Shown here in pieces: positions 2,156 to 20,239 of a stretch of 21,344 nucleotides of DNA. The stretch comes from a phage. The position numbers were made by a program, and so were the translations under genes. The DNA is taken from assembly GCA_014630515.1 (NCBI GenBank), contig GCA_014630515.1_4091.1, one strand, 5' to 3'. Below the pieces are notes generated by a model, which saw nothing but the letters and a program-made list of their open reading frames with translations, was not told where the DNA came from and did not search any database. The first letter of the stretch is position 1. Each line of letters starts with the position of its first letter.

Positions 2156-2243
2156 ATAGATACTTCTCTGCACCCTGTGGGCTAGTTTTTGTCTATGCGT
2201 ATATAATAGCAAAGGGACTGACCGGAGTCAATCCCTTTTTTTT
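2156..2243 (-). repeat. repeat element A: conserved leader motif, embedded promoter, GC hairpin with T-run
   Basis: core GCACCCTGTGGGCT; TATATAATAGCAAAGGGACTGACCGGAGTCAATCCC hairpin followed by T8 on plus strand; minus-strand TTGACT, 17 bp, TATTAT overlaps the hairpin; near-identical copies at ~4075, ~7076, ~11806. Confidence 0.6.
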
Positions 2244-2254
2244 ATTCTTTTTTG

Positions 2255-2455
2255 TTAGATGATTCTCCAATCTTCTACCAGGATTTTAATATACCGTACC
2301 AGTGATTCGAGTGATTCCACTTCCCGATAATCGGTAGCCGTTTGCACTGTACAAGTACAGCCGATCAAGCCATTGCCAAGCTCTTTGATCTGTACATCGA
2401 TGCAGTTGGCTTTTGCTTCATTCAGTACTGCAACCAATTCGTTAGCGATTGACAT
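2255..2455 (-). CDS. hypothetical protein (66 aa)
   Basis: ATG 2453-2455; AGGAG SD 9 nt upstream; stop TAA 2255-2257. Confidence 0.7.
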   Translation of the reverse strand: MSIANELVAVLNEAKANCIDVQIKELGNGLIGCTCTVQTATDYREVESLESLVRYIKILVEDWRII

Positions 2456-2508
2456 AATGTTTTACTCCTAAAGGTGCGGGAGAACTATTCCCCCGCTCTA
2501 TGTAAAAC

Positions 2509-2536
2509 ATTATACATTATCTTGTAGTACTGTCAA
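2509..2536 (-). promoter_or_regulatory. early sigma70-type promoter with 5' stem-loop
   Basis: minus strand TTGACA, 16 bp, TATAAT; leader hairpin GCGGG..CCCGC. Confidence 0.6.
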
Positions 2537-2543
2537 ATAGTTT

Positions 2544-2801
2544 TTATGAAATATCTTCGATATAGTCGGCCCATGTCATTTGTTCAGTACTATCGAGTGC
2601 ACCAGGATTATTTGGATCAAACCATTCGCCATCCCCTAAGTACATTGCAGCCGCTACCGCTTTATAGCCATTATAGGCGTTATTCCACTGCATAGCACGA
2701 TAGATACGGCCTTTGATTGGTGTCTGTACTGGTAATGTTTTATGGTCTTCTACGTAGGCCATAGCTTGAGGATTTACCCGATATTGTGTGAACTGTTCCA
2801 T
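2544..2801 (-). CDS. hypothetical protein (85 aa)
   Basis: ATG 2799-2801 with GGGGA SD; track start 2858 lies inside the promoter. Confidence 0.65.
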   Translation of the reverse strand: MEQFTQYRVNPQAMAYVEDHKTLPVQTPIKGRIYRAMQWNNAYNGYKAVAAAMYLGDGEWFDPNNPGALDSTEQMTWADYIEDIS

Positions 2802-2826
2802 TATGTTTCCCCTTGTAGTTAGTAAA

Positions 2827-2858
2827 GTTATTACATCAGTACTATCACGCATTGTCAA
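2827..2858 (-). promoter_or_regulatory. early sigma70-type promoter
   Basis: minus strand TTGACA with TGTAAT/TAATAA -10 candidates 17-20 bp downstream. Confidence 0.45.
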
Positions 2859-2876
2859 TAGTACTGAAATAAAACT

Positions 2877-3101
2877 TTAGATTAGATTATTGATGCCGTT
2901 GATGGTAGACTCGCTTTCTTCTTTCTCCCATTGGCGGTAATACTTCCATGCTTCATGATAGGTGGCGATCAGTTCATCTTTTTGATCCTGAGTACATGCC
3001 AGTACTGAATCACTGTAAGCGGTGTTATAGATAGAATCAAATGATTTCTTCTCTTCTGCCAGGGTAGCTACTTCCCGCATCAGTTCATCAAAGTTAGCCA
3101 T
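2877..3101 (-). CDS. hypothetical protein (74 aa)
   Basis: ATG 3099-3101; AAGGAG SD 8 nt upstream. Confidence 0.7.
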   Translation of the reverse strand: MANFDELMREVATLAEEKKSFDSIYNTAYSDSVLACTQDQKDELIATYHEAWKYYRQWEKEESESTINGINNLI

Positions 3102-3149
3102 TTTAGTACTCCTTATTAGTGGGGGAGGATATCTCCCCCTATGTAAAAC

Positions 3150-3177
3150 ATTATACTTTGTTTTACTTACAATGCAA
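3150..3177 (-). promoter_or_regulatory. early sigma70-type promoter with 5' stem-loop
   Basis: minus strand TTGCAT, 16 bp, TATAAT; leader hairpin GGGGGAG-gatat-CTCCCCC. Confidence 0.6.
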
Positions 3178-3184
3178 GTACTTT

Positions 3185-3376
3185 TTAAATTTTATTTCCG
3201 ATATAGTCCGGCCTGTTCTTTTCGGTCATACGCTTAAGCATTTTTTGCATATGGCTTATTGCTTGTAGTGTATCCTCTTCCAGCGATGAATCAAGATAAT
3301 CAGGATCATTCTTCACCTTACAATGATTATGATAGCGTAGTACTGCCAGTACTTTTTTAACTTCTTCTACTGTCAT
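3185..3376 (-). CDS. hypothetical protein (63 aa)
   Basis: ATG 3374-3376 overlaps TGA of 3373..3645 (ATGA), consistent with translational coupling. Confidence 0.6.
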   Translation of the reverse strand: MTVEEVKKVLAVLRYHNHCKVKNDPDYLDSSLEEDTLQAISHMQKMLKRMTEKNRPDYIGNKI

Positions 3377-3645
3377 AATAAGTATTCCACTTCGTTTGCT
3401 TTCAGGTTAGTATCAATCATCAGTGGTTTTTTGTAGTCCACAAAACGATTAGTTTTCTCGATAGCGAAGCCCATATAATCCAGTTTGCTTACAGTACATT
3501 CATTCTTAAAAACTTCTTTCGCTGCATTGATGGCTGATTCAATTGATAACCGCCCATCTAAATTAATGTTACCAAATGATCCACCAGCAGAAGTAGGATT
3601 ACCGTTCATATCTTTAATAATCATAGTAGCGGAGTAGCTGGACAT
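3373..3645 (-). CDS. hypothetical protein (90 aa)
   Basis: ATG 3643-3645; AAGGA SD. Confidence 0.7.
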   Translation of the reverse strand: MSSYSATMIIKDMNGNPTSAGGSFGNINLDGRLSIESAINAAKEVFKNECTVSKLDYMGFAIEKTNRFVDYKKPLMIDTNLKANEVEYLL

Positions 3646-3698
3646 AATTTTGTTTCCTTTTATTGGTGGGGAGAGCTATTCTCCCCTTGATGTAAACT

Positions 3699-3726
3699 AT
3701 TATACAGTACTGATATACTTTGTCAA
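3699..3726 (-). promoter_or_regulatory. early sigma70-type promoter with 5' stem-loop
   Basis: minus strand TTGACA, 16 bp, TATAAT; leader hairpin GGGGAGA-gctat-TCTCCCC. Confidence 0.6.
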
Positions 3727-3729
3727 TAC

Positions 3730-3951
3730 TTAATTACGTTTAAAATGATATGTACCTTTATCATCCTGTACGCCCCATACTGATTTACCATCAACGCCAG
3801 TGATGCCGGATTGCAATTCAATATGGAAACCATTATTATCAACTACAAAAACTTTTTTATTTTCATCCCGATAACATTGATATTCTGAATCAACATTAAA
3901 GGCCGCATCATTCAGAAGATTGGAAGCGTAAATGCAAGTCATTGTAGTCAT
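3730..3951 (-). CDS. hypothetical protein (73 aa)
   Basis: ATG 3949-3951; AAGGA SD 8 nt upstream. Confidence 0.7.
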   Translation of the reverse strand: MTTMTCIYASNLLNDAAFNVDSEYQCYRDENKKVFVVDNNGFHIELQSGITGVDGKSVWGVQDDKGTYHFKRN

Positions 3952-4002
3952 GATTTTATTCCTTATTACCAGGGAGAACCATTTCCCCTCTCGATATAAA
4001 AC

Positions 4003-4030
4003 ATTATACTTGATTCTAAGTACAATGCAA
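4003..4030 (-). promoter_or_regulatory. early sigma70-type promoter
   Basis: minus strand TTGCAT, 16 bp, TATAAT. Confidence 0.6.
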
Positions 4031-4074
4031 GTACTTTTTTAAAATAGTTTTCAGTACTGAATACTTATATAATA

Positions 4075-4166
4075 GATACACTTCCGCACCCTATGGGTCA
4101 GTGAGTTATCTCTCAATGGATATATAATAGCAAAGGGACTGACCGGAGTCAATCCCTTTTTTAATC
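4075..4166 (-). repeat. repeat element B: conserved leader motif, embedded promoter, GC hairpin with T-run
   Basis: core GCACCCTATGGGTCAGTGAG; hairpin AAAGGGACTGACCGGAGTCAATCCC plus T6; minus-strand TTGACT, 17 bp, TATTAT (4124-4152). Confidence 0.6.
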
Positions 4167-4170
4167 TTTT

Positions 4171-4755
4171 TTATCGTGTTACCTTACTTGCTGCCACATC
4201 ACGCTTTTTATAGTACTGATTCCAGATATTGCTGGTTAAACCGTAATCAAGTACTTTAATAAGTCCATTACGATCCTGGCCGATATTCTGTTTTCTGATA
4301 TCTCTTATCGTTAGTGTTGATAATGTATCATCGACGTGTTGTAGTGCATCAGCAAAGCGGTGCTGGCGTTCAATGGCATTACGTTTAATATTGTACTTTA
4401 ATTCGTTGCACGCGTTAACGTGCTTCACACTGCCTTTGCTTGCAGTACTCAACCGATCCATAACGATAAACATATTATCAGGATCGCATAAATGCATATG
4501 CACCTTTGCAAAGTACTGTTTCAACTGAGGGCGGTCATAGTCTAAAAAATTCCATACCTTACATTCAGTTTCATTTTGTTCTACACCCGCATCACAATTC
4601 GCGACCTTAATCACTAACCGATCATTTAAAGCGAATACTATACGGGAAGAACCAGCACCGATGATCTCCAGGCCAGCTAACCGACAAGCTGAAAGGATCT
4701 CTTTGTTGGTTTCCATTTCTGACAGTGTACGGATGAATTTAGTATAATTACGCAT
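4171..4755 (-). CDS. protein-kinase-like protein (194 aa)
   Basis: ATG 4753-4755; AAGGAG SD 8 nt upstream; translation has glycine-rich IGAGSSR, lysine in VIKV, catalytic-loop-like IRDIRKQN and DFG-like VLDYG in the expected order. Confidence 0.6.
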   Translation of the reverse strand: MRNYTKFIRTLSEMETNKEILSACRLAGLEIIGAGSSRIVFALNDRLVIKVANCDAGVEQNETECKVWNFLDYDRPQLKQYFAKVHMHLCDPDNMFIVMDRLSTASKGSVKHVNACNELKYNIKRNAIERQHRFADALQHVDDTLSTLTIRDIRKQNIGQDRNGLIKVLDYGLTSNIWNQYYKKRDVAASKVTR

Positions 4756-4786
4756 TGCATGTTCTCCTTGAGTTAATGAAACTATA

Positions 4787-5029
4787 TTACAGTACTTTAC
4801 TATCAATGGCAACTACTTTTTTAACATTAACGGCGTGGATCACTTCCTTAGTGTTTTTAGTACTGAATACTTTCGCCGCTCCTTGTTCGACCGTGATGCG
4901 ATAGCGACCATTAACATCAACCATATTAATAAAGTCCGGCGTGCTGAATGGTGTTGTTTTACATTTCAGTACTGTTAACAGTTCCACCAGCGATGTAGTT
5001 TCTTTGATACGTTTTTCTAAAGTAATCAT
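4787..5029 (-). CDS. hypothetical protein (80 aa)
   Basis: ATG 5027-5029; GGGGGA SD; 31-nt gap to 4171..4755 without promoter, so co-transcribed; track start lies in leader. Confidence 0.65.
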   Translation of the reverse strand: MITLEKRIKETTSLVELLTVLKCKTTPFSTPDFINMVDVNGRYRITVEQGAAKVFSTKNTKEVIHAVNVKKVVAIDSKVL

Positions 5030-5057
5030 TTTGTTTCCCCCGTGTTGGTATATGTAC

Positions 5058-5086
5058 ATAGTACTAAAACATTTGAGTACTGTCAA
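5058..5086 (-). promoter_or_regulatory. sigma70-type promoter (TACTAT subtype)
   Basis: minus strand TTGACA, 17 bp, TACTAT; upstream stop codon abuts the -35. Confidence 0.5.
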
Positions 5087-5305
5087 TTAGATAATATTAT
5101 ATTTCTTAAAATAAAATGCGTCCTGTGTTGGTTGATACTCAATGCCATTGCCGTTATTGACTTCAACTAATAAACCTTTGTCAATAAGTTTTTTAATAGT
5201 ACGATACCCTTGTTGAAAATTGGTAAAATGTGAATCATTACGAAAGGTATAACCGTGCTTAACTGCTTCATCAATAGTTTTCTTTTCGATTTTAGATAAT
5301 TTCAT
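5087..5305 (-). CDS. hypothetical protein (72 aa)
   Basis: ATG 5303-5305; same promoter and leader as 4787..5029, which produces the identical artefactual N-termini in the track. Confidence 0.65.
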   Translation of the reverse strand: MKLSKIEKKTIDEAVKHGYTFRNDSHFTNFQQGYRTIKKLIDKGLLVEVNNGNGIEYQPTQDAFYFKKYNII

Positions 5306-5333
5306 TTTGTTTCTCCCGTGTTGGTATATGTAC

Positions 5334-5362
5334 ATAGTACTAAAACATTTGAGTACTGTCAA
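5334..5362 (-). promoter_or_regulatory. sigma70-type promoter (TACTAT subtype)
   Basis: minus strand TTGACA, 17 bp, TACTAT; duplicate of 5058-5086. Confidence 0.5.
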
Positions 5363-5613
5363 CGTGATATTAGTTTTATTTTCTTATTATATTGTTGGTG
5401 TTCATATAGGTTTATCTTTCCTGTGTTCTCTATTACTATTCTGTTGTTAGTGTCTACATCGATTACACGCAGTTTCCCGTTGCTTAACTTCCTTGGTAAT
5501 AGGTTACCATTAATAAACTCATTAGCAAGCTGTACGGCCTTTGTGATGATTCTCTGTGGTGCTTTATAGTGTACCCGTAAGATATTATCTTTATATAGTT
5601 GAACCTTAATCAT
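5359..5613 (-). CDS. hypothetical protein (84 aa)
   Basis: ATG 5611-5613; AGGAC SD; lies just downstream of the 5626-5652 terminator. Confidence 0.6.
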   Translation of the reverse strand: MIKVQLYKDNILRVHYKAPQRIITKAVQLANEFINGNLLPRKLSNGKLRVIDVDTNNRIVIENTGKINLYEHQQYNKKIKLISR

Positions 5614-5625
5614 TTTGTTTGTCCT

Positions 5626-5652
5626 ATAAAAAATGCGGGAACTGATCCCGCC
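5626..5652 (-). terminator. rho-independent terminator (minus strand)
   Basis: minus strand GCGGGA-tcagt-TCCCGC followed by ATTTTTTAT. Confidence 0.6.
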
Positions 5653-5674
5653 GTGTTGTTAGTACTGCAAGTTA

Positions 5675-6070
5675 TTAGATAACCTGGCGGCGTTTACTGA
5701 ATACTGTTACACGATTACCCTTACGGTCGTGTCGGATCTCTTTCTGGTTGCGAATCAGTTCACTTGGACGCTTAAGGTTTGCCAGGTGATCCGCGTGAGT
5801 CCATGCGGTGTGGTTTACCTGTACTTTGATATCAGAATCAGCGATAAATTCATCTTGTGCGTCAAGTATTGCCGCCAGCATATCCGCTCGTTTTAGTTCT
5901 GCTGCTGTCAGTACTGGCTCAGGTGAATTCACAATATCAGAGATTTCTTTGAACTGTACGGCCCAGCGTTGACCTTTCGGTGCATCTTTGCCCATGTCTT
6001 TAAATGCTGCTCCTTCCTCGCGTGCAACAATACGGGCAGCTTCACGGGTAGCGTAGAATTTAGTAATCAT
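5675..6070 (-). CDS. hypothetical protein (131 aa), paralog of 18533..18799
   Basis: ATG 6068-6070 with AGGA SD (ATG 6077-6079 also possible); shares ATRE.AR..AR..GA.FKDMG and HDRKGNRVTV blocks with 18533..18799. Confidence 0.65.
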   Translation of the reverse strand: MITKFYATREAARIVAREEGAAFKDMGKDAPKGQRWAVQFKEISDIVNSPEPVLTAAELKRADMLAAILDAQDEFIADSDIKVQVNHTAWTHADHLANLKRPSELIRNQKEIRHDRKGNRVTVFSKRRQVI

Positions 6071-6114
6071 GGTATACATCCTATTAGTTGAGTTAGTACT
6101 ACAAGTTAGAGTCT

Positions 6115-6143
6115 ATTATAAAGTACTATCTGGGCAATGTCAA
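6115..6143 (-). promoter_or_regulatory. early sigma70-type promoter
   Basis: minus strand TTGACA, 17 bp, TATAAT. Confidence 0.6.
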
Positions 6144-6165
6144 ATAGTACTTTAAATGGATTCTA

Positions 6166-6489
6166 TTACATGTCTTTCTTACGTTTTACATCGTGGTAGC
6201 GAACTGTTATTTCTTTGTTGATCTCTTCCTCGATGCGGTGAATAACTTTTTCTTTCGGGTTGAAACCTATAACGGTTTCTTTAATGATCTCCAAGCCCGT
6301 GTATTCGCCTTGTGTACCGTAACCGTATGTAAAGGTTTCGTGTCCCAGGTCTTCCCAGCGGTCGCCAATTAACGCAGACACGTAGCAAGAGTGGTAAGTA
6401 TTGCCGTTCCGATCAGTCCAGCGATTAACTTTAATGTCAAAGGAGGTTACAATTTTCAGTTCTACTTTCTGGGTAAGGATCATAGCCAT
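6166..6489 (-). CDS. hypothetical protein (107 aa), paralog of 13677..14021
   Basis: ATG 6487-6489; shares NTYHS/NTYFS, YGYG and C-terminal DVKRKKD with 13677..14021. Confidence 0.65.
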   Translation of the reverse strand: MAMILTQKVELKIVTSFDIKVNRWTDRNGNTYHSCYVSALIGDRWEDLGHETFTYGYGTQGEYTGLEIIKETVIGFNPKEKVIHRIEEEINKEITVRYHDVKRKKDM

Positions 6490-6913: not shown

Positions 6914-7010
6914 ACTATTTTATCAGGGGAGTTTTTCGTGTGCCTTACTCCTGGGCTACTTAACGGGAAGTTACTTATTTCGTTCCCCGTCCTGATGTAA
7001 AACATTATAC
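6908..7010 (-). repeat. 103-bp duplicated block, copy 1 (non-coding leader between two promoters)
   Basis: identical to 18288-18390; no SD-preceded ORF; contains imperfect GGGAA/TTCCC and GGAG/CTCC inverted repeats. Confidence 0.6.
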
Positions 7011-7031: not shown

Positions 7032-7075
7032 GTACTTTTTAAAAATAGTTTTCAGTACTAGCCACCAGCTAACAA

Positions 7076-7160
7076 TAGATACATTTATGCACCCGGTGGG
7101 CTGATTTGTTTCTATGCGTATATAATAGCAAAGGGACTGACCGGAGTCAATCCCTTTTTC
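7076..7160 (-). repeat. repeat element C: conserved leader motif, embedded promoter, GC hairpin with T-run
   Basis: core GCACCCGGTGGGCT; hairpin AAAGGGACTGACCGGAGTCAATCCC plus T5; minus-strand TTGACT, 17 bp, TATTAT (7122-7150). Confidence 0.6.
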
Positions 7161-8487: not shown

Positions 8488-8844
8488 CTATGATAAAATC
8501 ATGATAGGATATTCACTATCGATCAGTACCTCGAATCCAAAACCTTCGTACCATTCTTTAAGATTAAAGGCGTTATCTTCTCCCGTATCGCATTCTAAGA
8601 TGATACAATCTGAATCATCGGCGGCATCGATAAAGGCATTCATTAATTCGTTACCTTCACCATTGCCCCGACTATCAGGATCAACATAAAGAGAATCAAT
8701 AAACGCTACACGGTCATAATCAAGATCCGGTGCAATGATTCCACGTTTAACAAACCAGTACTGCAATTGTGCTACTTTGCCCTGTACTTGATAACCAGTG
8801 ATCTCGCCATTGTCAGTAGTACGCGTGATATGATGTATTCCCAT
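8488..8844 (-). CDS. GNAT-family N-acetyltransferase-like protein (118 aa)
   Basis: ATG 8842-8844; AGGAT SD; translation has GNAT motif-A-like YVDPDSRGNGEGNELM and C-terminal WYEGFGFE. Confidence 0.6.
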   Translation of the reverse strand: MGIHHITRTTDNGEITGYQVQGKVAQLQYWFVKRGIIAPDLDYDRVAFIDSLYVDPDSRGNGEGNELMNAFIDAADDSDCIILECDTGEDNAFNLKEWYEGFGFEVLIDSEYPIMILS

Positions 8845-9166: not shown

Positions 9167-9464
9167 TATTTTAACCTCATTATAAAAATACTATAGTACT
9201 GTAACGCGACAAGTATATTACTTGTTCTTACTTTTTCCAATCCATACGACACGACATATTCATCCCCATATGTGCGGATCACCACACCATGAAAATTTTT
9301 ATACACTTCCACTACTAATCATAACCTTTCGTCTAACCAACTGCATAGAATTATACTACTTTACGCAAATTGATCAAGTATTGATCAGATCATTTTTTGA
9401 TCAATATTAGACAGCTACATTTGTGCACCCTATGGGTTAGTGACGTTCTCGTCTTGATGTAAGT

Positions 9465-9493
9465 ATTATGCCAGTACTGGCATAATTTGTCAA
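9465..9493 (-). promoter_or_regulatory. sigma70-type promoter followed by conserved leader motif (element E)
   Basis: minus strand TTGACA, 17 bp, CATAAT; leader 9421-9460 carries the GCACCCTATGGGTTAGTGAC core; the nearest downstream gene is ~290 nt away. Confidence 0.5.
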
Positions 9494-11021: not shown

Positions 11022-11489
11022 CTATTTTACGTTAATTTCTAAGTACTGCTCTTTGATGTTTTCCTGTTGGTAAATCTCGTTTAATGCTTTAAGATCTAAC
11101 ACCTGTTTACCTGCGGCCCGAATATACTTGTTAAGAGTCGCTAACAGCTTCTCAGGCGTGTTTGTAGTCTTACGGGTAGGGATTTTGTCATGTCCCATCG
11201 CGTAGTACTGTTTACGTGGAATAGTACTGATAACGCTGCGGTACGGTTCCATGATCAGCTTGTCTGTGTATTCGTCGCTATCCCCGAACTTCATACCGTG
11301 GATCGCAAAGGTCATCATCATGCGGTCGTTATCGCGGATATTGTGGGGGCAGTCGGCAAGCTCGCGAGTCAGTGACATAGTGATCCCCACGTCGCCACCC
11401 AGCGGTAAAGGTCGGGCGATAAAGAAACCGTTAGGGAATACTTTCAGGAAGTTTTCTTGTACTGCTGCGACGAATTCGATGCTATTCAT
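11022..11489 (-). CDS. hypothetical protein (155 aa)
   Basis: ATG 11487-11489; AGGAA SD 7 nt upstream; leader hairpin GGGGAAA-cgg-TTTCCCC. Confidence 0.7.
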   Translation of the reverse strand: MNSIEFVAAVQENFLKVFPNGFFIARPLPLGGDVGITMSLTRELADCPHNIRDNDRMMMTFAIHGMKFGDSDEYTDKLIMEPYRSVISTIPRKQYYAMGHDKIPTRKTTNTPEKLLATLNKYIRAAGKQVLDLKALNEIYQQENIKEQYLEINVK

Positions 11490-11589: not shown

Positions 11590-11772
11590 TTAATCTCTTT
11601 GATACTCACATAACGCCATATCATACGCAATTGACGCTGATTTGAAATCATCGTGACGCTCAATCTCTTTCATGTCTACATAGATGATCCATAGGTTTAC
11701 GTCTTCCTGGCGTATGATAACGGCAGGTTTACCGATGATATGTGATGCCGCTAGTTCGATTGGTTTAAACAT
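11590..11772 (-). CDS. hypothetical protein (60 aa)
   Basis: ATG 11770-11772; AAGGAG SD 8 nt upstream; transcribed from the promoter inside repeat element D. Confidence 0.65.
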   Translation of the reverse strand: MFKPIELAASHIIGKPAVIIRQEDVNLWIIYVDMKEIERHDDFKSASIAYDMALCEYQRD

Positions 11773-11805
11773 TGTAGTACTCCTTATTAGATTGATATAT
11801 TTTAT

Positions 11806-11892
11806 TTACACTTCCGCACCCGGTGGGCTAGTGAGCTATCTCTCAATGAATATATAATAGCAAAATGGCTGACCGAAGTCAACCACTTTTTT
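11806..11892 (-). repeat. repeat element D: conserved leader motif, embedded promoter, variant hairpin
   Basis: core GCACCCGGTGGGCTAGTGAG; hairpin TGGCTGACCGAAGTCAACCA with compensatory changes relative to A-C; T6 on plus strand; minus-strand TTGACT, 17 bp, TATTAT (11854-11882). Confidence 0.6.
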
Positions 11893-14064: not shown

Positions 14065-14093
14065 ATTATGCCAGTACTATCAAACTATGTCAA
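14065..14093 (-). promoter_or_regulatory. sigma70-type promoter (CATAAT subtype)
   Basis: minus strand TTGACA, 17 bp, CATAAT. Confidence 0.55.
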
Positions 14094-14360: not shown

Positions 14361-14389
14361 ATTATGCCAGTACTATCAATCTATGTCAA
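14361..14389 (-). promoter_or_regulatory. sigma70-type promoter (CATAAT subtype)
   Basis: minus strand TTGACA, 17 bp, CATAAT; ~70-bp block repeated from 14040-14110. Confidence 0.55.
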
Positions 14390-14637: not shown

Positions 14638-14865
14638 TTAATTTAATTCATCCAGGCAAAGGATACGTTCTACACCTAAATCAGTTAAGCTAATAGACGG
14701 CACTTGATAGGTTTCAATGTATTCTACACTAGCGTACTGACCAAACTCATCAACTGACCAGTTATACATTGCAAAATGTAGTTCCGCACCTTTCTTGTTA
14801 GTGATAACCGCTACTACTGCCGCATTGCCAACTGTACCAGATACGCGAGTGATTACGATAGCCAT
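14638..14865 (-). CDS. hypothetical protein (75 aa)
   Basis: ATG 14863-14865; AGGAA SD; track start 14922 lies in leader. Confidence 0.6.
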   Translation of the reverse strand: MAIVITRVSGTVGNAAVVAVITNKKGAELHFAMYNWSVDEFGQYASVEYIETYQVPSISLTDLGVERILCLDELN

Positions 14866-14948: not shown

Positions 14949-15102
14949 GTACTTTTTATTACTTTTTGCAAAATACTTTAAACGCCCTCAATCGCATTCT
15001 AACGACCTTAACGCCACCAGCTAGGGCGACGCATCAGATAATCAGTTTAATGCGTTAGAATCGATTCTAGGCGGTGCTAGTGGACTGGAATACTATAGAC
15101 AC

Positions 15103-15129
15103 AAAAAAGCCCACTGTTTAAGGTGGGCT
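15103..15129 (-). terminator. rho-independent terminator (minus strand)
   Basis: minus strand AGCCCAC-cttaaaca-GTGGGCT followed by TTTTTTGTGTC; downstream of 15151..15633. Confidence 0.7.
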
Positions 15130-15150
15130 AGTGATTCAGTACTTTAATTG

Positions 15151-15633
15151 TTATGCTTCAACTTTGCGATGAGCTTCGATCCATTCCTCGCGAGTCATAC
15201 CGCTTTCTTTGATAGCGTCCAGTACTACCGCAATGCAGTTACCGCGTACAGGAATCATATGTTCTTCCCCGTTATCAAGTACTACAGTAACACGTTCTTG
15301 AATCCATTTTTTAGGTTTAGATTCTGGCTTATCTTCACCATACTTAACCGCCAGGGCTTTATGTGCCATTTCTACAACTACTTCCAGATCCAATCCAGAC
15401 ACCGCCGCCTGGATACTTTCAATTGTTGCTTGCAGTTCGGCTTCACGGGCTTTTTTCTGTTCTTCCAGTTCTGCTACCTTTTTGGCTTGCAGTTCTTTAG
15501 CTTCACTGTACGCAATGTTAAAATTGTTGCGTACTGCTTTCATGGTATCGTTATCCAGGTCAGCCAGCAATTCAGCAGCAATAACAGTATCGTTTGAAAT
15601 CAGTGCTTTCAGGAATGATTTTACATTAGCCAT
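15151..15633 (-). CDS. hypothetical protein (160 aa), Ala/Glu/Lys-rich central region
   Basis: ATG 15631-15633; GAGGA SD 8 nt upstream; long ~120-nt leader. Confidence 0.7.
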   Translation of the reverse strand: MANVKSFLKALISNDTVIAAELLADLDNDTMKAVRNNFNIAYSEAKELQAKKVAELEEQKKAREAELQATIESIQAAVSGLDLEVVVEMAHKALAVKYGEDKPESKPKKWIQERVTVVLDNGEEHMIPVRGNCIAVVLDAIKESGMTREEWIEAHRKVEA

Positions 15634-15832: not shown

Positions 15833-15863
15833 AAAACAAAAAAGCCCACTGTATAAGTGGGCT
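15833..15863 (-). terminator. rho-independent terminator (minus strand)
   Basis: minus strand AGCCCAC-ttataca-GTGGGCT followed by TTTTTTGTTTTTG; same module as 15103-15129. Confidence 0.7.
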
Positions 15864-15880
15864 AGTGATTCAGTACTATA

Positions 15881-16180
15881 TTATAAACAATTAATTACGC
15901 CAGTGAATGTAACTTTCTCTGTATCCATTACAGTGACAGAACCGCGTTTACTTTTTGCATCGTAATAGATGGTCGTGCTACCCTGATCATCTTCTTCATG
16001 GTACGGGCCATTAGCAAACATTGCAGGGGCCAGTTCCAGGGATTTGGTAACGATCTCAGCCGTTTCCTCGTTAGTCATTGCAACAGTGCACTGAATGAAT
16101 TTTTCTTTCGGTACATCAACGGAAGCGTTAACAGCGAAAGAGGAAACAGATAAAGCCAGGGCGATGATTGCAGTTTTCAT
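15881..16180 (-). CDS. small secreted or periplasmic protein with N-terminal signal peptide (99 aa)
   Basis: ATG 16178-16180; N-terminus MKTAIIALALSVSSFAVNA has Lys then hydrophobic core then AxA-like site. Confidence 0.7.
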   Translation of the reverse strand: MKTAIIALALSVSSFAVNASVDVPKEKFIQCTVAMTNEETAEIVTKSLELAPAMFANGPYHEEDDQGSTTIYYDAKSKRGSVTVMDTEKVTFTGVINCL

Positions 16181-16230
16181 TTGTATATCCTTTGTTAGTA
16201 CTAGGGAGTATTCCCGATTAGATGTAAAAC

Positions 16231-16258
16231 ATTATACGCATTTAAAAACTATTATCAA
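16231..16258 (-). promoter_or_regulatory. early sigma70-type promoter
   Basis: minus strand TTGATA, 16 bp, TATAAT. Confidence 0.5.
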
Positions 16259-16293
16259 GTACTTTAATATAAAAGTATTTGAAAAAAAAAGTC

Positions 16294-16322
16294 TTGACAA
16301 CTGCATCCAGTACTGGCATAAT
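16294..16322 (+). promoter_or_regulatory. plus-strand sigma70-type promoter
   Basis: plus strand TTGACA, 17 bp, CATAAT; only clear plus-strand promoter inside the gene array. Confidence 0.5.
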
Positions 16323-16328
16323 ACTTAC

Positions 16329-16425
16329 ATAAAGACGAGATAGTCACTAACCCACAGGGTGCATAGATCCGTCTATTAAATGATTCAGTACTGCAAAATA
16401 AAGGGGATCGTTTGATCCCCTCTGT
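16329..16425 (+). ncRNA. candidate small RNA (plus strand) carrying the conserved leader motif
   Basis: starts ~7 nt after the 16294-16322 promoter, contains GAGATAGTCACTAACCCACAGGGTGC, ends at hairpin 16402-16421; no SD-preceded ORF. Confidence 0.3.
16393..16421 (-). terminator. rho-independent terminator (minus strand)
   Basis: minus strand AGGGGATC-aaac-GATCCCCT followed by TTTATTTTG; 5 nt after stop of 16427..16648. Confidence 0.65.
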
Positions 16426-16426
16426 A

Positions 16427-16648
16427 TTACTTAGTAAGATATAAACAAAAATCACCTTTCTTTGCTACGCCGCCAGTGTAACGCGATGAATAGTTAGAAA
16501 CGTCTTGCACTTCTGCAATGACGAGCGTATCATCATTTATTTCGTCGCAAAAACATACTGCGGGATCTTCTACGCCAATATTGTCAGCATGTGCCCGCAT
16601 AGATTTAACCAGTGCTTCAAGCTGGGAAAGAGTAGTGATATTAGCCAT
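16427..16648 (-). CDS. hypothetical protein (73 aa)
   Basis: ATG 16646-16648; AAGGAG SD 8 nt upstream. Confidence 0.7.
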   Translation of the reverse strand: MANITTLSQLEALVKSMRAHADNIGVEDPAVCFCDEINDDTLVIAEVQDVSNYSSRYTGGVAKKGDFCLYLTK

Positions 16649-16699
16649 TGTAAAACTCCTTATTAGTGGGGAGAACCATTTCTCCCCTTGATGTAAACT

Positions 16700-16727
16700 A
16701 TTATACAGTACTGGAAACTAATTGCAA
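16700..16727 (-). promoter_or_regulatory. early sigma70-type promoter with 5' stem-loop
   Basis: minus strand TTGCAA, 16 bp, TATAAT. Confidence 0.6.
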
Positions 16728-16735
16728 GTACTTTT

Positions 16736-16939
16736 TTAATTTAATTGCTTTAAAACATAATCAAAGACACCACGCACATCATTGATCATCGCCTGGCGGT
16801 TAGCAGGTAACGCATCAGGATCGCCACTATCCCAGGCATTAATGAAGCCACCTAAATCATGGAATACTTTATTCCGTAACCCGATCAACTGCAATTCTTT
16901 TTCTTCAAGCTCTTTGATACGTTTAATTAAATCACTCAT
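16736..16939 (-). CDS. hypothetical protein (67 aa)
   Basis: ATG 16937-16939; GAGGA SD overlaps stop of 16957..17241; start region GAGGATTATCTAATGAGT is duplicated at 17241. Confidence 0.6.
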   Translation of the reverse strand: MSDLIKRIKELEEKELQLIGLRNKVFHDLGGFINAWDSGDPDALPANRQAMINDVRGVFDYVLKQLN

Positions 16940-16956
16940 TAGATAATCCTCAGTAC

Positions 16957-17241
16957 TCAATTGTAAGATCCGCAACGGTCGCAGTAGTGCCCGTCCTCGT
17001 CATCTTCTACCACTTGCCCGATGAAATGATCTACTTTCGCTTTCAGGTTATTATAATCGTTTTCTACTTCCTTTAAACGCTTCTGGTAGTATTCCAGTGC
17101 TTTAAGATATGCCGCATCAGTAGTTTTCTCCTGCATAGCTAAATTCATGCCACGCGTTTCATCGTACAGCCAAAAACCATCGGTGCACTCACTTATAGAC
17201 AATGACTTGCTTAACACATTGTACTTTATTACTTTACTCAT
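16957..17241 (-). CDS. hypothetical protein (94 aa)
   Basis: ATG 17239-17241; GAGGA SD; C-terminal CDRCG. Confidence 0.7.
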   Translation of the reverse strand: MSKVIKYNVLSKSLSISECTDGFWLYDETRGMNLAMQEKTTDAAYLKALEYYQKRLKEVENDYNNLKAKVDHFIGQVVEDDEDGHYCDRCGSYN

Positions 17242-17291
17242 TAGATAATCCTCATTAAAGGCGGGAACTATTCCCGCTCTCGATATAAAGT

Positions 17292-17319
17292 ATTATACGT
17301 TAATCTAATTACTTTGCAA
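17292..17319 (-). promoter_or_regulatory. early sigma70-type promoter with 5' stem-loop
   Basis: minus strand TTGCAA, 16 bp, TATAAT. Confidence 0.6.
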
Positions 17320-17326
17320 GTACTTT

Positions 17327-17563
17327 TTAGTGCTTTTTATAAAACATCTCAGCGGTGATATTTTTACCCGTTGGTTGTACTTTATCCAGGATCTTTTGGT
17401 GTGCACTACGCCCGAAAGAATAAGAACCGTAAACCGTTAGCCAGTAGTCGCCATTTTGGTTTACATGTACCGCACAATAAGGAACGCCCCGCGAATCGTC
17501 ACCAATGAAGTGTGATACTGTACCCGTTACGTTTGGCGTTGTAGTTTTGATTTGTTCGATCAT
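17327..17563 (-). CDS. hypothetical protein (78 aa)
   Basis: ATG 17561-17563; AGGAG SD 8 nt upstream; track start lies in leader. Confidence 0.6.
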   Translation of the reverse strand: MIEQIKTTTPNVTGTVSHFIGDDSRGVPYCAVHVNQNGDYWLTVYGSYSFGRSAHQKILDKVQPTGKNITAEMFYKKH

Positions 17564-17621
17564 TTCTCTTACTCCTGGGATATAGGCGGGAACCATTCCC
17601 CGCCATTGATTCAGTACTGAA

Positions 17622-18233
17622 TTAATATTCGATAGATTCTACTACATCGTCGATAACGTTAAATTGATATTCGTTACCCTCAATCAGTCCTACAATGTTT
17701 TCAGTAGTAAACTGGTCTTCATAAGCATTTTCTAAATCACGGTACAGCTTACAAGATAATTCTCGGATAGTATCAGTCAGTAAGTTTTCCAGATCCTCAG
17801 CCAATGCAGCCTGTTTTACAGTTAAATCAGTGTAGCGAGTATCAACGCAACCGCCTACCGTGTTTTCGTGAGCGTAGCGTGATTGGGAACGTTCTACACT
17901 CATTTCCAAATCATCTTCGTTCAATAGGTGACGGATGGAACGATATTTCGTTAACGCCTTAACCTTGCGTAAAAACTTCTCAGCGTCAACGTGGTCAGTA
18001 CTGATTGATGCACCGTCACCTTGCGACCAAAAACCACTGTATTGCAATTCAGCTTCATCTATGCCGTATTCTGGCAGTACTGTTTCTTTATAGTATTCCA
18101 GTACTGATTCAGCAAAGAAATTATCCTCACTTGCACGTTCCCGATCCCGAACCAGTTCGATAGCCGCCGCTTGTTGTTCTGCGTTCAGTTCAGAAAAATC
18201 CATAACGAAAGTAGTAGTAGTGATAGTTTTCAT
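17622..18233 (-). CDS. acidic protein (203 aa)
   Basis: ATG 18231-18233; GAGGG SD; strongly Asp/Glu-rich; largest gene in the window. Confidence 0.7.
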   Translation of the reverse strand: MKTITTTTFVMDFSELNAEQQAAAIELVRDRERASEDNFFAESVLEYYKETVLPEYGIDEAELQYSGFWSQGDGASISTDHVDAEKFLRKVKALTKYRSIRHLLNEDDLEMSVERSQSRYAHENTVGGCVDTRYTDLTVKQAALAEDLENLLTDTIRELSCKLYRDLENAYEDQFTTENIVGLIEGNEYQFNVIDDVVESIEY

Positions 18234-18265
18234 TTTGTAACCCTCATTCAGTAGTTGATGTAAGT

Positions 18266-18293
18266 ATTATACGCTTTTAAAAACAATTGTCAA
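18266..18293 (-). promoter_or_regulatory. early sigma70-type promoter
   Basis: minus strand TTGACA, 16 bp, TATAAT. Confidence 0.6.
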
Positions 18294-18390
18294 ACTATTT
18301 TATCAGGGGAGTTTTTCGTGTGCCTTACTCCTGGGCTACTTAACGGGAAGTTACTTATTTCGTTCCCCGTCCTGATGTAAAACATTATAC
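18288..18390 (-). repeat. 103-bp duplicated block, copy 2
   Basis: identical to 6908-7010; lies between two tandem promoters upstream of 17622..18233. Confidence 0.6.
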
Positions 18391-18411
18391 GCCTTTAAAC
18401 ATAGTTTGCAA
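18384..18411 (-). promoter_or_regulatory. early sigma70-type promoter
   Basis: minus strand TTGCAA, 16 bp, TATAAT. Confidence 0.55.
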
Positions 18412-18444
18412 GTACTTTTTGAAAATAGTTTTTATCTCTTTCAT

Positions 18445-18526
18445 ATAGATACATTCCCGCACCCTATGGGCTATCGCCTTGTGTCCGGCTTGTAAGTATT
18501 ATCTCACTAAGCCGGATAACGGTCAA
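18445..18526 (-). repeat. repeat element G: promoter with conserved leader motif and flanking inverted repeat
   Basis: minus strand TTGACC, 17 bp, GATAAT (18498-18526); inverted repeat CCGGCTT/AAGCCGG brackets the -10; leader has CCCATAGGGTGCGGGAATG. Confidence 0.5.
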
Positions 18527-18532
18527 GTACTT

Positions 18533-18799
18533 TTATTCAAGTACTGCAATCTTTTTAGTACTGTACACAGTAACGCGGTTGCCCTTGCGGTCGTGCTTTA
18601 TTTCTACCACGCGACGCGATACACTATCAGGACGCTTTAAAGCAGATAGCCAGTACTGAATTGATCGGGCTGTACTTTGCTTTACTACGGCCCAACGTTT
18701 ACCACGTTCAGATTGTACGCCCATATCTTTAAACGTTGCCCCGTCCTGGCGTGCTGCAATCCGAGCTAGTTCACGCGTCGCAAAATATGTAATAGTCAT
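18533..18799 (-). CDS. hypothetical protein (88 aa), paralog of 5675..6070
   Basis: ATG 18797-18799; track start is a TTG in the promoter. Confidence 0.6.
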   Translation of the reverse strand: MTITYFATRELARIAARQDGATFKDMGVQSERGKRWAVVKQSTARSIQYWLSALKRPDSVSRRVVEIKHDRKGNRVTVYSTKKIAVLE

Positions 18800-18836
18800 G
18801 CTGTTACCCCTATCGTTGATGTACAAAAAGAACTTT

Positions 18837-18865
18837 ATTATAAAGTACTATCATTTTTTGCGATA
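18837..18865 (-). promoter_or_regulatory. sigma70-type promoter (weak -35)
   Basis: minus strand TATAAT with poor -35; context resembles the 6115-6143 promoter of the paralog. Confidence 0.4.
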
Positions 18866-18884
18866 GTACTTTAAATAAATTCTA

Positions 18885-19124
18885 TTACATTCCAACCATC
18901 GCCGCACGGATCGCAGTAGTGCTATACTTAAAGCCGTCTGGAGTTTTATCTTGTCCAGTCTGTTCTAAAAATAGCATCATATGACGGGCCGCATCATTGC
19001 GATTAGTATTGGCGGCAATAAAGTCCTGGGCCAACCGGTACAATGACTCATCGTTATTAATCCAAAGGCTTACATTCCAATGAGTTTTGTTTTTGTGACC
19101 TAAGAACATTTTTGATTTAGCCAT
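18885..19124 (-). CDS. hypothetical protein (79 aa)
   Basis: ATG 19122-19124; GAGGA SD. Confidence 0.7.
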   Translation of the reverse strand: MAKSKMFLGHKNKTHWNVSLWINNDESLYRLAQDFIAANTNRNDAARHMMLFLEQTGQDKTPDGFKYSTTAIRAAMVGM

Positions 19125-19174
19125 TTTTTAATCCTCTTATATAGTGGGGAACTATTCCCCACCTGATGTAAAAC

Positions 19175-19202
19175 ATTATACGCTTTTAAACTTAGTTTGC
19201 AA
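19175..19202 (-). promoter_or_regulatory. early sigma70-type promoter with 5' stem-loop
   Basis: minus strand TTGCAA, 16 bp, TATAAT; leader hairpin GGGGAA-ctatt-CCCC. Confidence 0.6.
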
Positions 19203-19216
19203 GTACTTTATTAAAC

Positions 19217-19579
19217 TTATTCGTAAATTTTGCCACTGTCAGCCCATACCAGGAAACGAGGCATATTATCCCATGCATCTTGTTTTAAATTTAAACCGTG
19301 TAATACTTCTGTACTTTCCATTCCTGGTACTGGTTTACTATACACCGCGAAATTTTCGCCCATATACTGATAAACCATCGTTAAATCACTGGCGATCATC
19401 TTATGGATCATCGCATCAAGCATCACGGTAGCGGCGTATTGTTCACGCTTAAGCGGCAACATTGTAATAAGTTCCCGATAAGCTGAAATGTGAATTTTTA
19501 CCGTTTCAGCCGGAAGACCTTTCATCTCTTCACGGAAGTTGACCAGGTTAGCAATAATTTTATTGATTTGGGTCGCCAT
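19217..19579 (-). CDS. hypothetical protein (120 aa)
   Basis: ATG 19577-19579; track start 19636 lies in promoter and leader; first gene downstream of the ORF-poor region. Confidence 0.6.
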   Translation of the reverse strand: MATQINKIIANLVNFREEMKGLPAETVKIHISAYRELITMLPLKREQYAATVMLDAMIHKMIASDLTMVYQYMGENFAVYSKPVPGMESTEVLHGLNLKQDAWDNMPRFLVWADSGKIYE

Positions 19580-19635
19580 CGTATTAATCTCTTTTAAAGT
19601 GTAGCGGGAAGTGTTCCCGCTCTCGATGTAAAACA

Positions 19636-19663
19636 TTATACGCCTTTAAACATAGTTTGCAAG
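19636..19663 (-). promoter_or_regulatory. early sigma70-type promoter with 5' stem-loop
   Basis: minus strand TTGCAA, 16 bp, TATAAT. Confidence 0.6.
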
Positions 19664-19898
19664 TACTTTCTACATGTACTTTTAAAATAGTTTTCTTTCT
19701 ATATAGGGGAACTATTATTCAGTACTATCATTCAGTACTGAATCAACCAAATCACTACTACACCCCATAAAACGGCCTCAGACGCATTCTAACGCATTAA
19801 TACACCTAAGCTATACATTTGCACCATTCCAATCATTCCAGGGCTTTACGGGCCGTTTAAACGCGTTAAATTATTTTCAATTATTTTGTTTTTAGGTA

Positions 19899-19926
19899 TT
19901 GACTTGATCCTGAAAAAGCGTATAAT
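19899..19926 (+). promoter_or_regulatory. plus-strand sigma70-type promoter
   Basis: plus strand TTGACT, 16 bp, TATAAT; followed by conserved leader motif GACGCGAGAAAGCGGATACCCCAGGGGGTGGGAAG. Confidence 0.55.
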
Positions 19927-20113
19927 TACTACATAGACGCGAGAAAGCGGATACCCCAGGGGGTGGGAAGATCCGTCCAAAATTCAAGATATAAAAAAAG
20001 GATAGACTCCCGCACCCTAGCAGGTTAACGCACTTTCTCAGTACTGAATTATAGTACCATAGTCCGGCCCAGGATGGCAAGCAAATTAATTAAAACTTTT
20101 TTCATCCAGGGTA

Positions 20114-20141
20114 TTGCTTTATTTTTCCAGTACTGTATAAT
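20114..20141 (+). promoter_or_regulatory. plus-strand sigma70-type promoter
   Basis: plus strand TTGCTT, 16 bp, TATAAT; followed by leader motif GTCGAGAAAGACTCAAGCCCACCGGGTGCATAG. Confidence 0.5.
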
Positions 20142-20239
20142 AGTTCCATCAAGTCGAGAAAGACTCAAGCCCACCGGGTGCATAGTTACGCCCAAAATTC
20201 AGTACTGAAAAAAATTTTTAAAAATATCCGTCCAGGCCG

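Follow-up and report, generated by a model that had tools for sequence, protein, structure and literature searches.

A predicted folded RNA module at the start of early transcripts, conserved in the terminal-repeat region of an E. coli jumbo phage and its relatives

Introduction

Several kinds of short elements have been described in early transcripts of phages or in multi-copy bacterial RNA families. The put antiterminator RNAs of phage HK022 (putL and putR) lie directly downstream of early promoters, occur twice per genome ahead of long operons and are 73 nt in length, with two long stem-loops and a triplex in stem I; putL begins at the transcript start (PMC9378689). They confer protein-independent anti-pausing and terminator read-through in cis. 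The lambda nut site combines a linear boxA segment with a boxB hairpin of 5 bp and a GNRA-like pentaloop. PeSL cassettes of T4-like phages are defined by a stem-loop, an early sigma70 promoter, a Shine-Dalgarno sequence and a start codon, and are located between small early genes in plastic regions (PMC4122927). Multi-copy bacterial sRNA families, such as Qrr1-5, LhrC1-5 and OmrA/B, are chromosomal base-pairing RNAs with accessible seeds, in which several paralogs share one invariant segment and each has its own promoter and terminator. RNA anti-CRISPRs (Racrs, solitary repeat units) are short, promoter-driven phage RNAs that mimic the host CRISPR repeat.

Here, we examined a repeated motif in a 21,344-nt stretch of phage DNA (GenBank assembly GCA_014630515.1, contig GCA_014630515.1_4091.1; hereafter the window), which is the early, terminal-repeat region of an Asteriusvirus (121Q/PBECO4 group). 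A sequence-only reading had listed ten copies of a block with a CCC-N3-GGG repeat downstream of sigma70-type promoters. We found that nine strong copies and one degenerate copy belong to a family of ∼55-nt RNA modules, which is conserved across related jumbo phages of six bacterial genera and matches no family in Rfam 15.

Results and discussion

Occurrence of the module in the window

All ten listed copies exist, and the observation was confirmed. The 20-mer given in the sequence-only reading, with up to 3 mismatches, gave 5 matches against 0.01 expected. The core CCCNNNGGGTGC with up to 1 mismatch gave 9 matches against 0.97 expected, a number reached by 0 of 100 shuffles. A covariance model built from 14 copies of five phages and run with filters off gave nine window hits with E from 1.5e-19 to 6.5e-6, and a marginal tenth hit (E 0.28). 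It should be noted that the next hit (14772-14827, minus strand; 9.5 bits, E 0.47) is at noise level and scores almost the same as the tenth (10.1 bits), so the tenth copy is accepted on reading its sequence and not on the model score. The copies and their promoters are as follows:

2156-2197, minus: copy without the P1 stem, with the A-rich stretch ACAAAAAC in its place; core at 2170-2181; 36.8 bits. Another promoter (2052-2080) follows.
2203-2231, minus: its promoter, TTGACT-17-TATTAT, with the -35 inside hairpin 2211-2238.
4072-4118, minus: copy with P1 (TGAG-agataa-CTCA); core at 4086-4097; 59.2 bits, E 1.5e-19. A further promoter and a gene start (3951) follow.
4124-4152, minus: its promoter, TTGACT-17-TATTAT, with the -35 inside the terminator-like hairpin 4132-4159.
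7075-7116, minus: copy without the P1 stem (AGAAACAAAT in its place); core at 7089-7100; 31.6 bits. Two further promoters follow before the gene.
7122-7150, minus: its promoter, TTGACT-17-TATTAT, with the -35 inside hairpin 7130-7157.
9411-9457, minus: copy with P1 (GAC-gagaac-GTC); core at 9425-9436; 38.2 bits. Another promoter (9350-9377) follows.
9465-9493, minus: its promoter, TTGACA-17-CATAAT, with CCAGTACTGG in the spacer.
11802-11848, minus: copy with P1 (TGAG-agatag-CTCA); core at 11816-11827; 51.2 bits. The only window copy placed as a direct 5' UTR, with AAGGAG and then ATG at 11772.
11854-11882, minus: its promoter, TTGACT-17-TATTAT, with the -35 inside hairpin 11862-11889.
16294-16322, plus: promoter TTGACA-17-CATAAT of the stand-alone copy, pointing against the direction of the genes and back-to-back with the minus-strand promoter 16231-16258.
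16330-16376, plus: stand-alone copy with P1 (GAC-gagata-GTC); core at 16351-16362; 54.3 bits. No ORF lies downstream; it forms the 5' domain of a predicted ∼100-nt RNA.
16403-16420, plus: hairpin GGGGATC-GTTT-GATCCCC, the bidirectional terminator shared with the converging gene 16427-16648 (minus), marking the predicted 3' end of the stand-alone RNA.
18445-18492, minus: copy with P1 (GCC-ggacacaa-GGC); core at 18459-18470; 30.2 bits. Promoters at 18384-18411 and 18266-18293 follow.
18498-18526, minus: its promoter, TTGACC-17-GATAAT.
19934-19980, plus: copy with P1 (CGC-gagaaa-GCG) and the variant core CCCCAGGGGGTGG; 22.5 bits, E 6.5e-6; promoter TTGACT-16-TATAAT at 19899-19926. It is convergent with the tenth copy and has no ORF downstream.
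19998-20051, minus: degenerate tenth copy, GTACT-gagaa-AGTGC, then CCTGCTAGGGTGC, then GGGAGT CTATCC and a run of seven T; a promoter-like TTGCCA-18-TACTAT lies at about 20051-20080.
20149-20195, plus: copy with P1 (AGTC-gagaaa-GACT); core at 20170-20181; 47.8 bits; promoter TTGCTT-16-TATAAT at 20114-20141. It points towards the window end and has no ORF downstream.

Every strong copy follows a sigma70-type promoter, and the end of the -10 lies 27-34 nt before GGGTGC. Two points of the sequence-only reading needed correction. First, the flank CTCACTRR / GTGAG..TATCTC is not a family feature; it is the 3' arm and loop of the variable hairpin P1 as it happens to read in four window copies, and copies 2156-2197 and 7075-7116 lack that hairpin. 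Second, the CCC-N3-GGG repeat, said to be retained in every copy, is modified in the tenth copy (CCT GCT AGG, or CCU pairing with GGG through a wobble) and is CCCC..GGGG in 19934-19980.

Structure and covariation

Each module begins at the predicted +1 of its promoter and reads: hairpin P1 (3-5 bp of any sequence, with a 6-8 nt purine-rich loop ending in AA), a 3-nt linker, the invariant RCCC-AYA-GGGUGC, a 6-nt spacer and a GYRYCY hexamer. The CCC and GGG can form a 4-bp hairpin (P2); alternatively, GGGUG can pair with the hexamer (P3). All four P1 pairs change on both sides and are 92% paired, with a covariation score of 0.434 against 0.140 in shuffles (0 of 500 reach it) and at most 0.056 in slid registers. 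The result was repeated on 121 hits, and the top four mutual-information pairs were exactly the P1 pairs. Although these alignments were fitted to the model, an alignment-free control, which does not depend on them, gave 54 of 63 copies with a hairpin in the right place, against 20.4 +/- 3.6 in shuffles. P2 is short and weak, but its mean predicted pairing probability is 0.61, against 0.18 for P3, and rare C-G to U-A double changes keep it paired.

These data bear on the possibility that the motif acts at the DNA level, either as an operator or roadblock for a repressor of early transcription, or as a promoter cassette spread by recombination (PeSL-like) whose transcribed part has no function of its own. 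The core is a near-palindrome at a fixed place in the DNA, copies occur in both orientations, and the four promoters whose -35 lies inside a hairpin (class-1 promoters) have the stem-loop-plus-promoter layout of PeSL cassettes (PMC4122927). However, covariation in P1 indicates selection on a folded single strand, and compensatory changes in a stem are not expected for a duplex-DNA regulator site, which is thus not supported as the main reading. In addition, copies within one genome differ widely outside the core, so they are not recent duplicates, and the core is invariant across genera. We consider a DNA-level feature very unlikely.

Distribution in related phages

Conservation in related genomes had been named beforehand as a test of the motif, and it was found. 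The family occurs in about 9-12 copies per genome, on both strands of the terminal repeat, in Rak2-like phages of Escherichia, Klebsiella, Salmonella, Pectobacterium, Serratia, Erwinia and Cronobacter. The model gave 65 hits in six phages of five genera or groups, and strong hits in IMG/VR occurred only in Rak2-like contigs. All copies lie in the ∼20-kb terminal early region: in a 350-kb genome all 9 hits lie within 19 kb, with none in the other 330 kb, and the BLAST matches in fENko-Kae01, Muenster, vB_Ec-M-J and CBB fall inside annotated terminal repeats. No hits could be identified in Pseudomonas phage PA5oct, and BLAST found no match in E. coli genomes, although BLAST cannot detect a 12-nt site. 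A scan of the whole window against Rfam 15 at E<=1 gave only terminator-driven Trp_leader and bglG noise away from the elements, and two stand-alone units scanned alone gave only terminator-driven hits at 8-25 bits, against gathering scores of 38-100.

Promoters, genes and stand-alone units

The position relative to predicted transcription starts is fixed: 110 of 115 family copies have a promoter matching at least 9 of 12 positions at a fixed distance. Two thirds of the copies point in the gene direction. However, of 63 copies, 21 have no ORF within 400 nt downstream, and nine of those are followed within 25-35 nt by a terminator-type hairpin, which predicts ∼100-nt stand-alone RNAs. At least 17 of the other 42 have another strong promoter between the element and the gene. 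A simple gene leader is therefore also not supported. As there is no expression data for any of these phages, all transcript ends are predictions.

The window unit 16294-16420 is a conserved island shared with Klebsiella phage RaK2. The whole unit from the -35 to the hairpin aligns with RaK2 (about 14650-14790, minus strand), whereas the flanks cannot be aligned and the P1 stem has been swapped from GCC/GGC to GAC/GTC. The fold of 16329-16430 has -27.1 kcal/mol (z-score -3.0). The copy is 90-100% identical in 40 Asteriusvirus and related Salmonella phage records and 88.3% identical in fEgEco12, and it is unannotated in all but five Salmonella phage records, which annotate a hypothetical protein over the match. 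Its terminator has a poor U-tract on the plus strand, whereas RaK2 14709 (minus) and 21777 (minus), Munch 12001 (minus) and Hallingskeid 17432 (plus) clearly have their own promoter and an intrinsic terminator with a U-tail.

Possible roles of the module

The sequence-only reading had suggested a cis-acting RNA or DNA signal, such as a regulator binding site or processing site, and this interpretation was partly supported: the fixed position, the conservation across phage genera and the RNA-level nature of the signal held, and processing or protein binding remains possible. What the analysis establishes is a family of structured RNA modules, predicted to be transcribed, coupled to strong sigma70 promoters and confined to the early host-takeover region. 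That the RNA itself is the product is our inference, as are the reading of a third of the copies as stand-alone genes for ∼100-nt RNAs (promoter, module, AU-rich linker, intrinsic terminator) and the view that most of the others sit upstream of complete promoter-gene cassettes.

Our best guess, which is tentative, is that host RNA polymerase makes many copies of the module immediately after injection, and that the invariant P2 core, presented next to the A-rich P1 loop, is the binding site of one conserved partner. That partner is more likely a protein (from the enterobacterial host, or a conserved phage early protein) than a complementary RNA. In this view, the module would act as a multi-copy decoy or sponge, or as a tag that marks early transcripts for that factor. 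The core is a small hairpin with a conserved loop (A-Y-A), which is the usual form of a protein site rather than a single-stranded seed, and no complementary site exists elsewhere in the phage genome. On the other hand, no partner could be identified, as the 20 largest window ORFs have no RNA-binding domain, and the gene-directed copies, including the true 5' UTR 11802-11848, also fit a cis-acting role.

The main alternative, which we consider possible but less likely, is a cis-acting element that modifies the transcribing RNA polymerase, being either a small put-like RNA that confers resistance to pausing and termination, or a hairpin-stabilised promoter-proximal pause at about +45 that lets a factor load. 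The module starts at +1 of early promoters, like putL (PMC9378689), and class-1 copies sit right after terminator hairpins, at the start of new transcription units. All hosts are Enterobacterales, whose RNA polymerases are expected to be nearly identical, which could explain an invariant core. Alignment columns 48-49 are GG, followed by 8 nt, then U at column 58 (56 of 63) and G at column 59 (37 of 63). This matches the elemental pause consensus G-11 G-10 ... Y-1 G+1, with P2 ending at -9/-10, where a his-type signal has a nascent hairpin ending about 10-11 nt upstream of the RNA 3' end; however, the consensus carries little information and a chance match is plausible. Against this reading, a third of the copies have nothing to express downstream, read-through of the nine terminator-type hairpins would give antisense RNA across the neighbouring gene, convergent pairs would collide, and the stems are 3-5 bp, whereas put RNA has two long stems and a triplex.

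A determinant of 5'-end stability or processing, that is, a protective 5' structure or a recognition site for a host or phage endoribonuclease (comparable to the RNase III sites of T7 or RegB of T4) that sets the lifetime of early RNAs, appears unlikely. P1 lies 3-6 nt from the predicted 5' end, the other early promoters in the window also start with a 5' hairpin, an AU-rich stretch follows the module, and convergent pairs would form 15-17 bp duplexes if read through. However, a stabiliser needs no invariant 13-nt core, about ten copies have lost the P1 stem yet keep the core, and stand-alone copies have no message to stabilise.

A base-pairing, Hfq-dependent small RNA family, with the core or the linker-plus-CCC as seed and a conserved host mRNA as target, is similarly unlikely. 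Stand-alone copies look like an sRNA gene (promoter, conserved 5' region, AU-rich stretch and terminator with a U-tail), although this layout does not apply to the leader copies, and multi-copy sRNA families with a shared seed, such as Qrr and LhrC, exist. Against this reading, in predictions the core is mostly paired in P2, and no complementary site exists in the phage genome, a negative that does not extend to host targets.

Comparison with known systems

Like HK022 put RNA, the module is a folded phage early element transcribed from the very start of a sigma70 transcript, and a conserved host RNA polymerase could be the partner. In contrast with put (PMC9378689), it is about 55 nt with a 3-5 bp P1 and a 4-bp P2, occurs in about 10 copies on both strands, and many copies face a terminator with no gene behind it. 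The lambda nut site shares a small promoter-proximal hairpin with a purine-rich, GNRA-like loop next to a conserved linear segment. However, the only invariant segment in 65-121 aligned copies is RCCCAYAGGGUGC and no boxA-like sequence is conserved, P1 loops are 6-8 nt rather than a pentaloop, the hairpin comes first and the conserved segment second, and no N-like protein was identified among the window ORFs examined.

With regard to PeSL cassettes, the four class-1 promoters carry a terminator-like stem-loop enclosing the -35 of an early sigma70 promoter, between small early genes in a plastic region, but this describes the promoter and not the RNA module. PeSLs contain no conserved transcribed RNA module (PMC4122927), and only copy 11802-11848 is followed directly by a gene, whereas the others are 61-317 nt from an ORF or have none. 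Racrs are also short, promoter-driven, hairpin-containing phage RNAs in several copies, but the model scores at most 6.7 bits on the E. coli K-12 type I-E array, and the apparent resemblance to the I-F repeat rests on TCACT, the variable P1 arm of only four window copies. Finally, as in Qrr1-5, LhrC1-5 and OmrA/B, several short RNAs per genome share one invariant segment, but here that segment is a predicted hairpin, most copies sit in leader position, and the family is confined to a phage terminal repeat.

Genomic context of the window

A megablast search placed the window in the Asteriusvirus jumbo phages of E. coli (121Q/PBECO4 group), and the best match was 92% identical over positions 1-21835 of record OR699282.2. 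The window carries dozens of small minus-strand ORFs and many near-consensus sigma70 promoters. In total, 94 promoter-like sites were counted against 68 expected, ten of which were perfect TTGACA-N16/17-TATAAT. Because the matching region is annotated in relatives as the direct terminal repeat, this is the early, terminal-repeat region. A Pfam search of the 20 largest ORFs of the window revealed no RNA-binding candidate. The ORF at 8488-8844(-) is a GNAT acetyltransferase (E 4e-9), whereas 4171-4812(-) has a weak, sub-threshold protein-kinase match (E 0.005).

Several other sequence features surround the modules and promoters of this region:
2536, 3726, 6573, 7865, 10605, 12346, 12575, 12903, 14629, 16727, 17319, 19202 and 19662, minus strand: promoters followed by a second, commoner leader type, which consists of CAUCAA, then a GC-rich hairpin such as GGGGAGAAAUGGUUCUCCCC, then ACUAAGAGGA and AUG, that is, a 5' hairpin directly ahead of the Shine-Dalgarno sequence.
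2211-2238, 4132-4159, 7130-7157 and 11862-11889, minus strand: the terminator-like hairpin AAAGGGATTGACTCCGGTCAGTCCCTTT, which contains the -35 TTGACT of the next promoter. Terminator and promoter are thus fused, much as in the PeSL cassettes of T4-like phages.
6950-6997 and 18330-18377, minus strand: an identical 48-nt unit (CATCAGGACGGGGAACGAAATAAGTAACTTCCCGTTAAGTAGCCCAGG) behind a TTGCA(A/T)-N16-TATAAT promoter, lying between the RNA module and a third promoter. Three tandem promoters therefore occur within about 250 bp, with no ORF in the first two units.
5058-5086 with 5334-5362, and 14065-14093 with 14361-14389, minus strand: near-identical promoter-leader duplicates ahead of neighbouring small ORFs, which suggests tandem duplication of early gene cassettes.
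Whole window (for example, 16308-16315, 16386-16393 and 20039-20046): the 8-bp palindrome CAGTACTG, found 42 times against 0.27 expected.

The palindrome lies in promoter spacers, just upstream of -35 boxes (AAAGTACTTGCAA), after the RNA modules and inside ORFs. AGTACT runs at about 60 per 10 kb in the early region and about 20 per 10 kb across the rest of a 350-kb relative, against roughly 3 expected from composition, and the same density is seen in all five other phages. It may be the site of a phage DNA-binding or modification factor.

Identification and anatomy of the module

The sequence-only reading had reported a conserved leader motif in at least ten copies on both strands, each a few nucleotides downstream of a sigma70-type -10, and this observation was confirmed. 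The 20-mer proposed in that reading gave 5 matches against 0.01 expected, and the core CCCNNNGGGTGC gave 9 matches against 0.97 expected. A covariance model run with filters off found nine hits with E of 6.5e-6 or better and a tenth, degenerate hit at 19998-20051(-), which are exactly the ten places originally listed. It should be noted that a noise hit scored almost the same as the tenth, so that this copy rests on reading its sequence. Each strong copy follows a promoter, with the end of the -10 lying 27-34 nt before GGGTGC. However, the CTCACT... flank is not a family feature but one version of a variable hairpin.

To define the family, we collected 63 copies by pattern from the window and from the terminal regions of CBB, RaK2, Serratia BF, Salmonella Munch and Erwinia Hallingskeid. 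The model then found 65, and later 121, hits. In the direction of transcription, the parts are as follows:
Predicted start, at the A of CAT.
P1, a 3-5 bp stem of more than 25 different sequences, with a 6-8 nt purine-rich loop ending in AA (GCGAAA, GAGAAA, AGAUAA, AGAACAA, GGACACAA).
Linker, usually YUA.
Invariant segment, RCCC-AYA-GGGUGC.
Spacer of 6 nt (NNARNU).
Hexamer, GYRYCY, usually followed by AU.

About ten copies have lost the P1 stem but keep an A-rich stretch in its place. We also looked for a mini-ORF (GGAG AUG UAU CUA UAG), which was rejected because it is present in only some copies and its SD spacing is zero.

Evidence for RNA structure

All four P1 pairs show changes on both sides. 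They are 92% paired, with a covariation score of 0.434 against 0.140 in shuffles (0 of 500) and at most 0.056 in slid registers, and the larger set gave the same result. A mutual-information scan put exactly the four P1 pairs on top and showed no other long-range pair. Considering that those alignments were fitted to the model, an alignment-free control was added, in which a hairpin at the right place occurred in 54 of 63 copies, against 20.4 +/- 3.6 in shuffled sequences. Additional long-range pairings were considered, namely the P1 loop with the 3' hexamer, the P2 loop ACA with UGU, and a closing stem between the 5' CAUAG and the 3' CUAU. None was retained, as the mutual-information scan showed nothing beyond P1 and reading the copies showed that these pairings are inconsistent.

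In contrast, P2 (RCCC/GGGU) hardly varies. Its outer pair alternates between A-U and G-U, and the rare ACCU...AGGU variants keep the pairing. An alternative helix, P3 (GGGUGC with the hexamer), excludes P2. It is 90% pairable in register against 33-64% when slid, but almost all of its variation is one-sided. Partition-function folding favoured P2, with a mean probability of 0.61 against 0.18 for P3, and RNAalifold returned P1 plus P2.

Distribution of the module

A BLAST search with one copy found the family only in Rak2-like jumbo phages of Escherichia, Salmonella, Klebsiella, Pectobacterium, Serratia and Erwinia. A scan of IMG/VR followed by the model added Cronobacter GAP32 and three metagenomic jumbo contigs, whereas everything else was at chance level. 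In a complete 350-kb Asteriusvirus genome, all nine hits fell within 19 kb. In the other five phages, all hits lay in the first ~20 kb of the early region, and none was found in the adjoining 5-20 kb that was examined. The Pseudomonas relative PA5oct, whose DTR ncRNAs are known from RNA-seq, gave no hit with the model and so offers no borrowed expression evidence. BLAST of a consensus element against 5,426 E. coli genomes gave no match. No site complementary to the core could be identified in a whole 350-kb genome; a base-pairing sRNA ranks among the less likely readings of the module.

Rfam scans of the window and of two stand-alone units gave nothing relevant. The weak Trp_leader hits at 15836-15908 and 15101-15166 (minus strand) are only two copies of one intrinsic terminator (AGCCCAC...GTGGGCT followed by TTTTTTG). 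The possibility that the module mimics a CRISPR repeat was rejected for type I-E by test, and the resemblance to type I-F rests on a variable arm. Literature searches for the core sequence, Asteriusvirus or Rak2 promoters, DTR ncRNAs and Asteriusvirus transcriptomes found no description of the element; the RaK2 paper does not mention promoters at all, and the CBB paper lists RpoD-like promoters only.

Stand-alone and gene-proximal copies

Of 63 copies, 21 have no ORF within 400 nt downstream, and most of these point against the direction of the genes. Nine of them run into a terminator-type hairpin, most with a U-tract, 25-35 nt after the module, which predicts RNAs of about 100 nt. The example in the window is 16294-16420. 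The predicted RNA 16329-16430 folds at -27.1 kcal/mol with a z-score of -3.0. The whole unit, from the -35 to the terminator, aligns with a RaK2 unit, whereas the flanks cannot be aligned and P1 has changed from GCC/GGC to GAC/GTC.

Other copies form convergent pairs about 1 kb from the genome end in every genus. Fur-box-like palindromes (for example, AATGAGAATGATAATGATTCTCATT) sit between convergent module pairs near the genome end in RaK2, BF, Munch and Hallingskeid, and downstream of a single copy in RaK2 (~11100). Their positions in the terminal-region sequences are L002 (RaK2) ~11950 and ~11090-11120, L003 ~1040, L004 ~1045 and ~7440, and L005 ~19390 and ~19930. No Fur-box consensus match (up to 3 mismatches) occurs in the window, and none is seen in its convergent pair. 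Among the gene-proximal copies, at least 17 of 42 have another strong promoter before the gene. Only 11802-11848 is a plain 5' UTR.

Possible roles of the module

The conservation, covariation, promoter position and distribution of the module are established by the present analysis and point to an RNA-level element that is often the whole product of its transcription unit, whereas the transcript ends, the existence of a binding partner and any action on the host are inferred. The sequence-only interpretation, a cis-acting RNA or DNA signal such as a regulator binding or processing site, was supported only in part. We tentatively favor a multi-copy early small RNA or tag whose invariant hairpin would be recognized by one conserved partner. 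The main rival, which we regard as less likely, is a cis-acting element on RNA polymerase, either put-like or a hairpin-stabilized pause. The column statistics do fit the G-10/Y-1/G+1 pause consensus, although this consensus is weak. However, put has a very different anatomy from that of the module, and the terminator-facing copies argue against antitermination. A role in stability or processing, and DNA-level readings, rank lower, as does the base-pairing sRNA.

A more far-reaching possibility, which appears unlikely on present evidence but could not be excluded, is that the module represents a new class of phage host-takeover RNA. In this view, about 20 gene copies per packaged genome (two terminal repeats) would flood the cell within minutes with one invariant hairpin, which would either sequester a conserved enterobacterial RNA-binding or defence protein, or ride on host RNA polymerase as a miniature put-like modifier that needs no protein.

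Rak2-like jumbo phages are common candidates for therapy against E. coli, Klebsiella, Salmonella, Erwinia and Pectobacterium, and their roughly 20-kb terminal early region is almost entirely unannotated small genes. Our data add a defined RNA family with strong covariation support, precise predicted starts and about 120 examples, and provide a direct handle, accessible to standard methods, on how these phages begin host takeover. If the partner is a host protein or RNA polymerase itself, the module would be a compact natural tool, that is, an RNA decoy or a transcription modifier. It should also be annotated so that these intergenic regions stop being treated as empty or as spurious small ORFs, as some records call hypothetical proteins over it.

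The general kind, a promoter-coupled structured phage RNA, is already known, whereas this family, its copy number, its dual use as stand-alone RNA (as predicted) and as leader, and its confinement to the terminal repeat are new.
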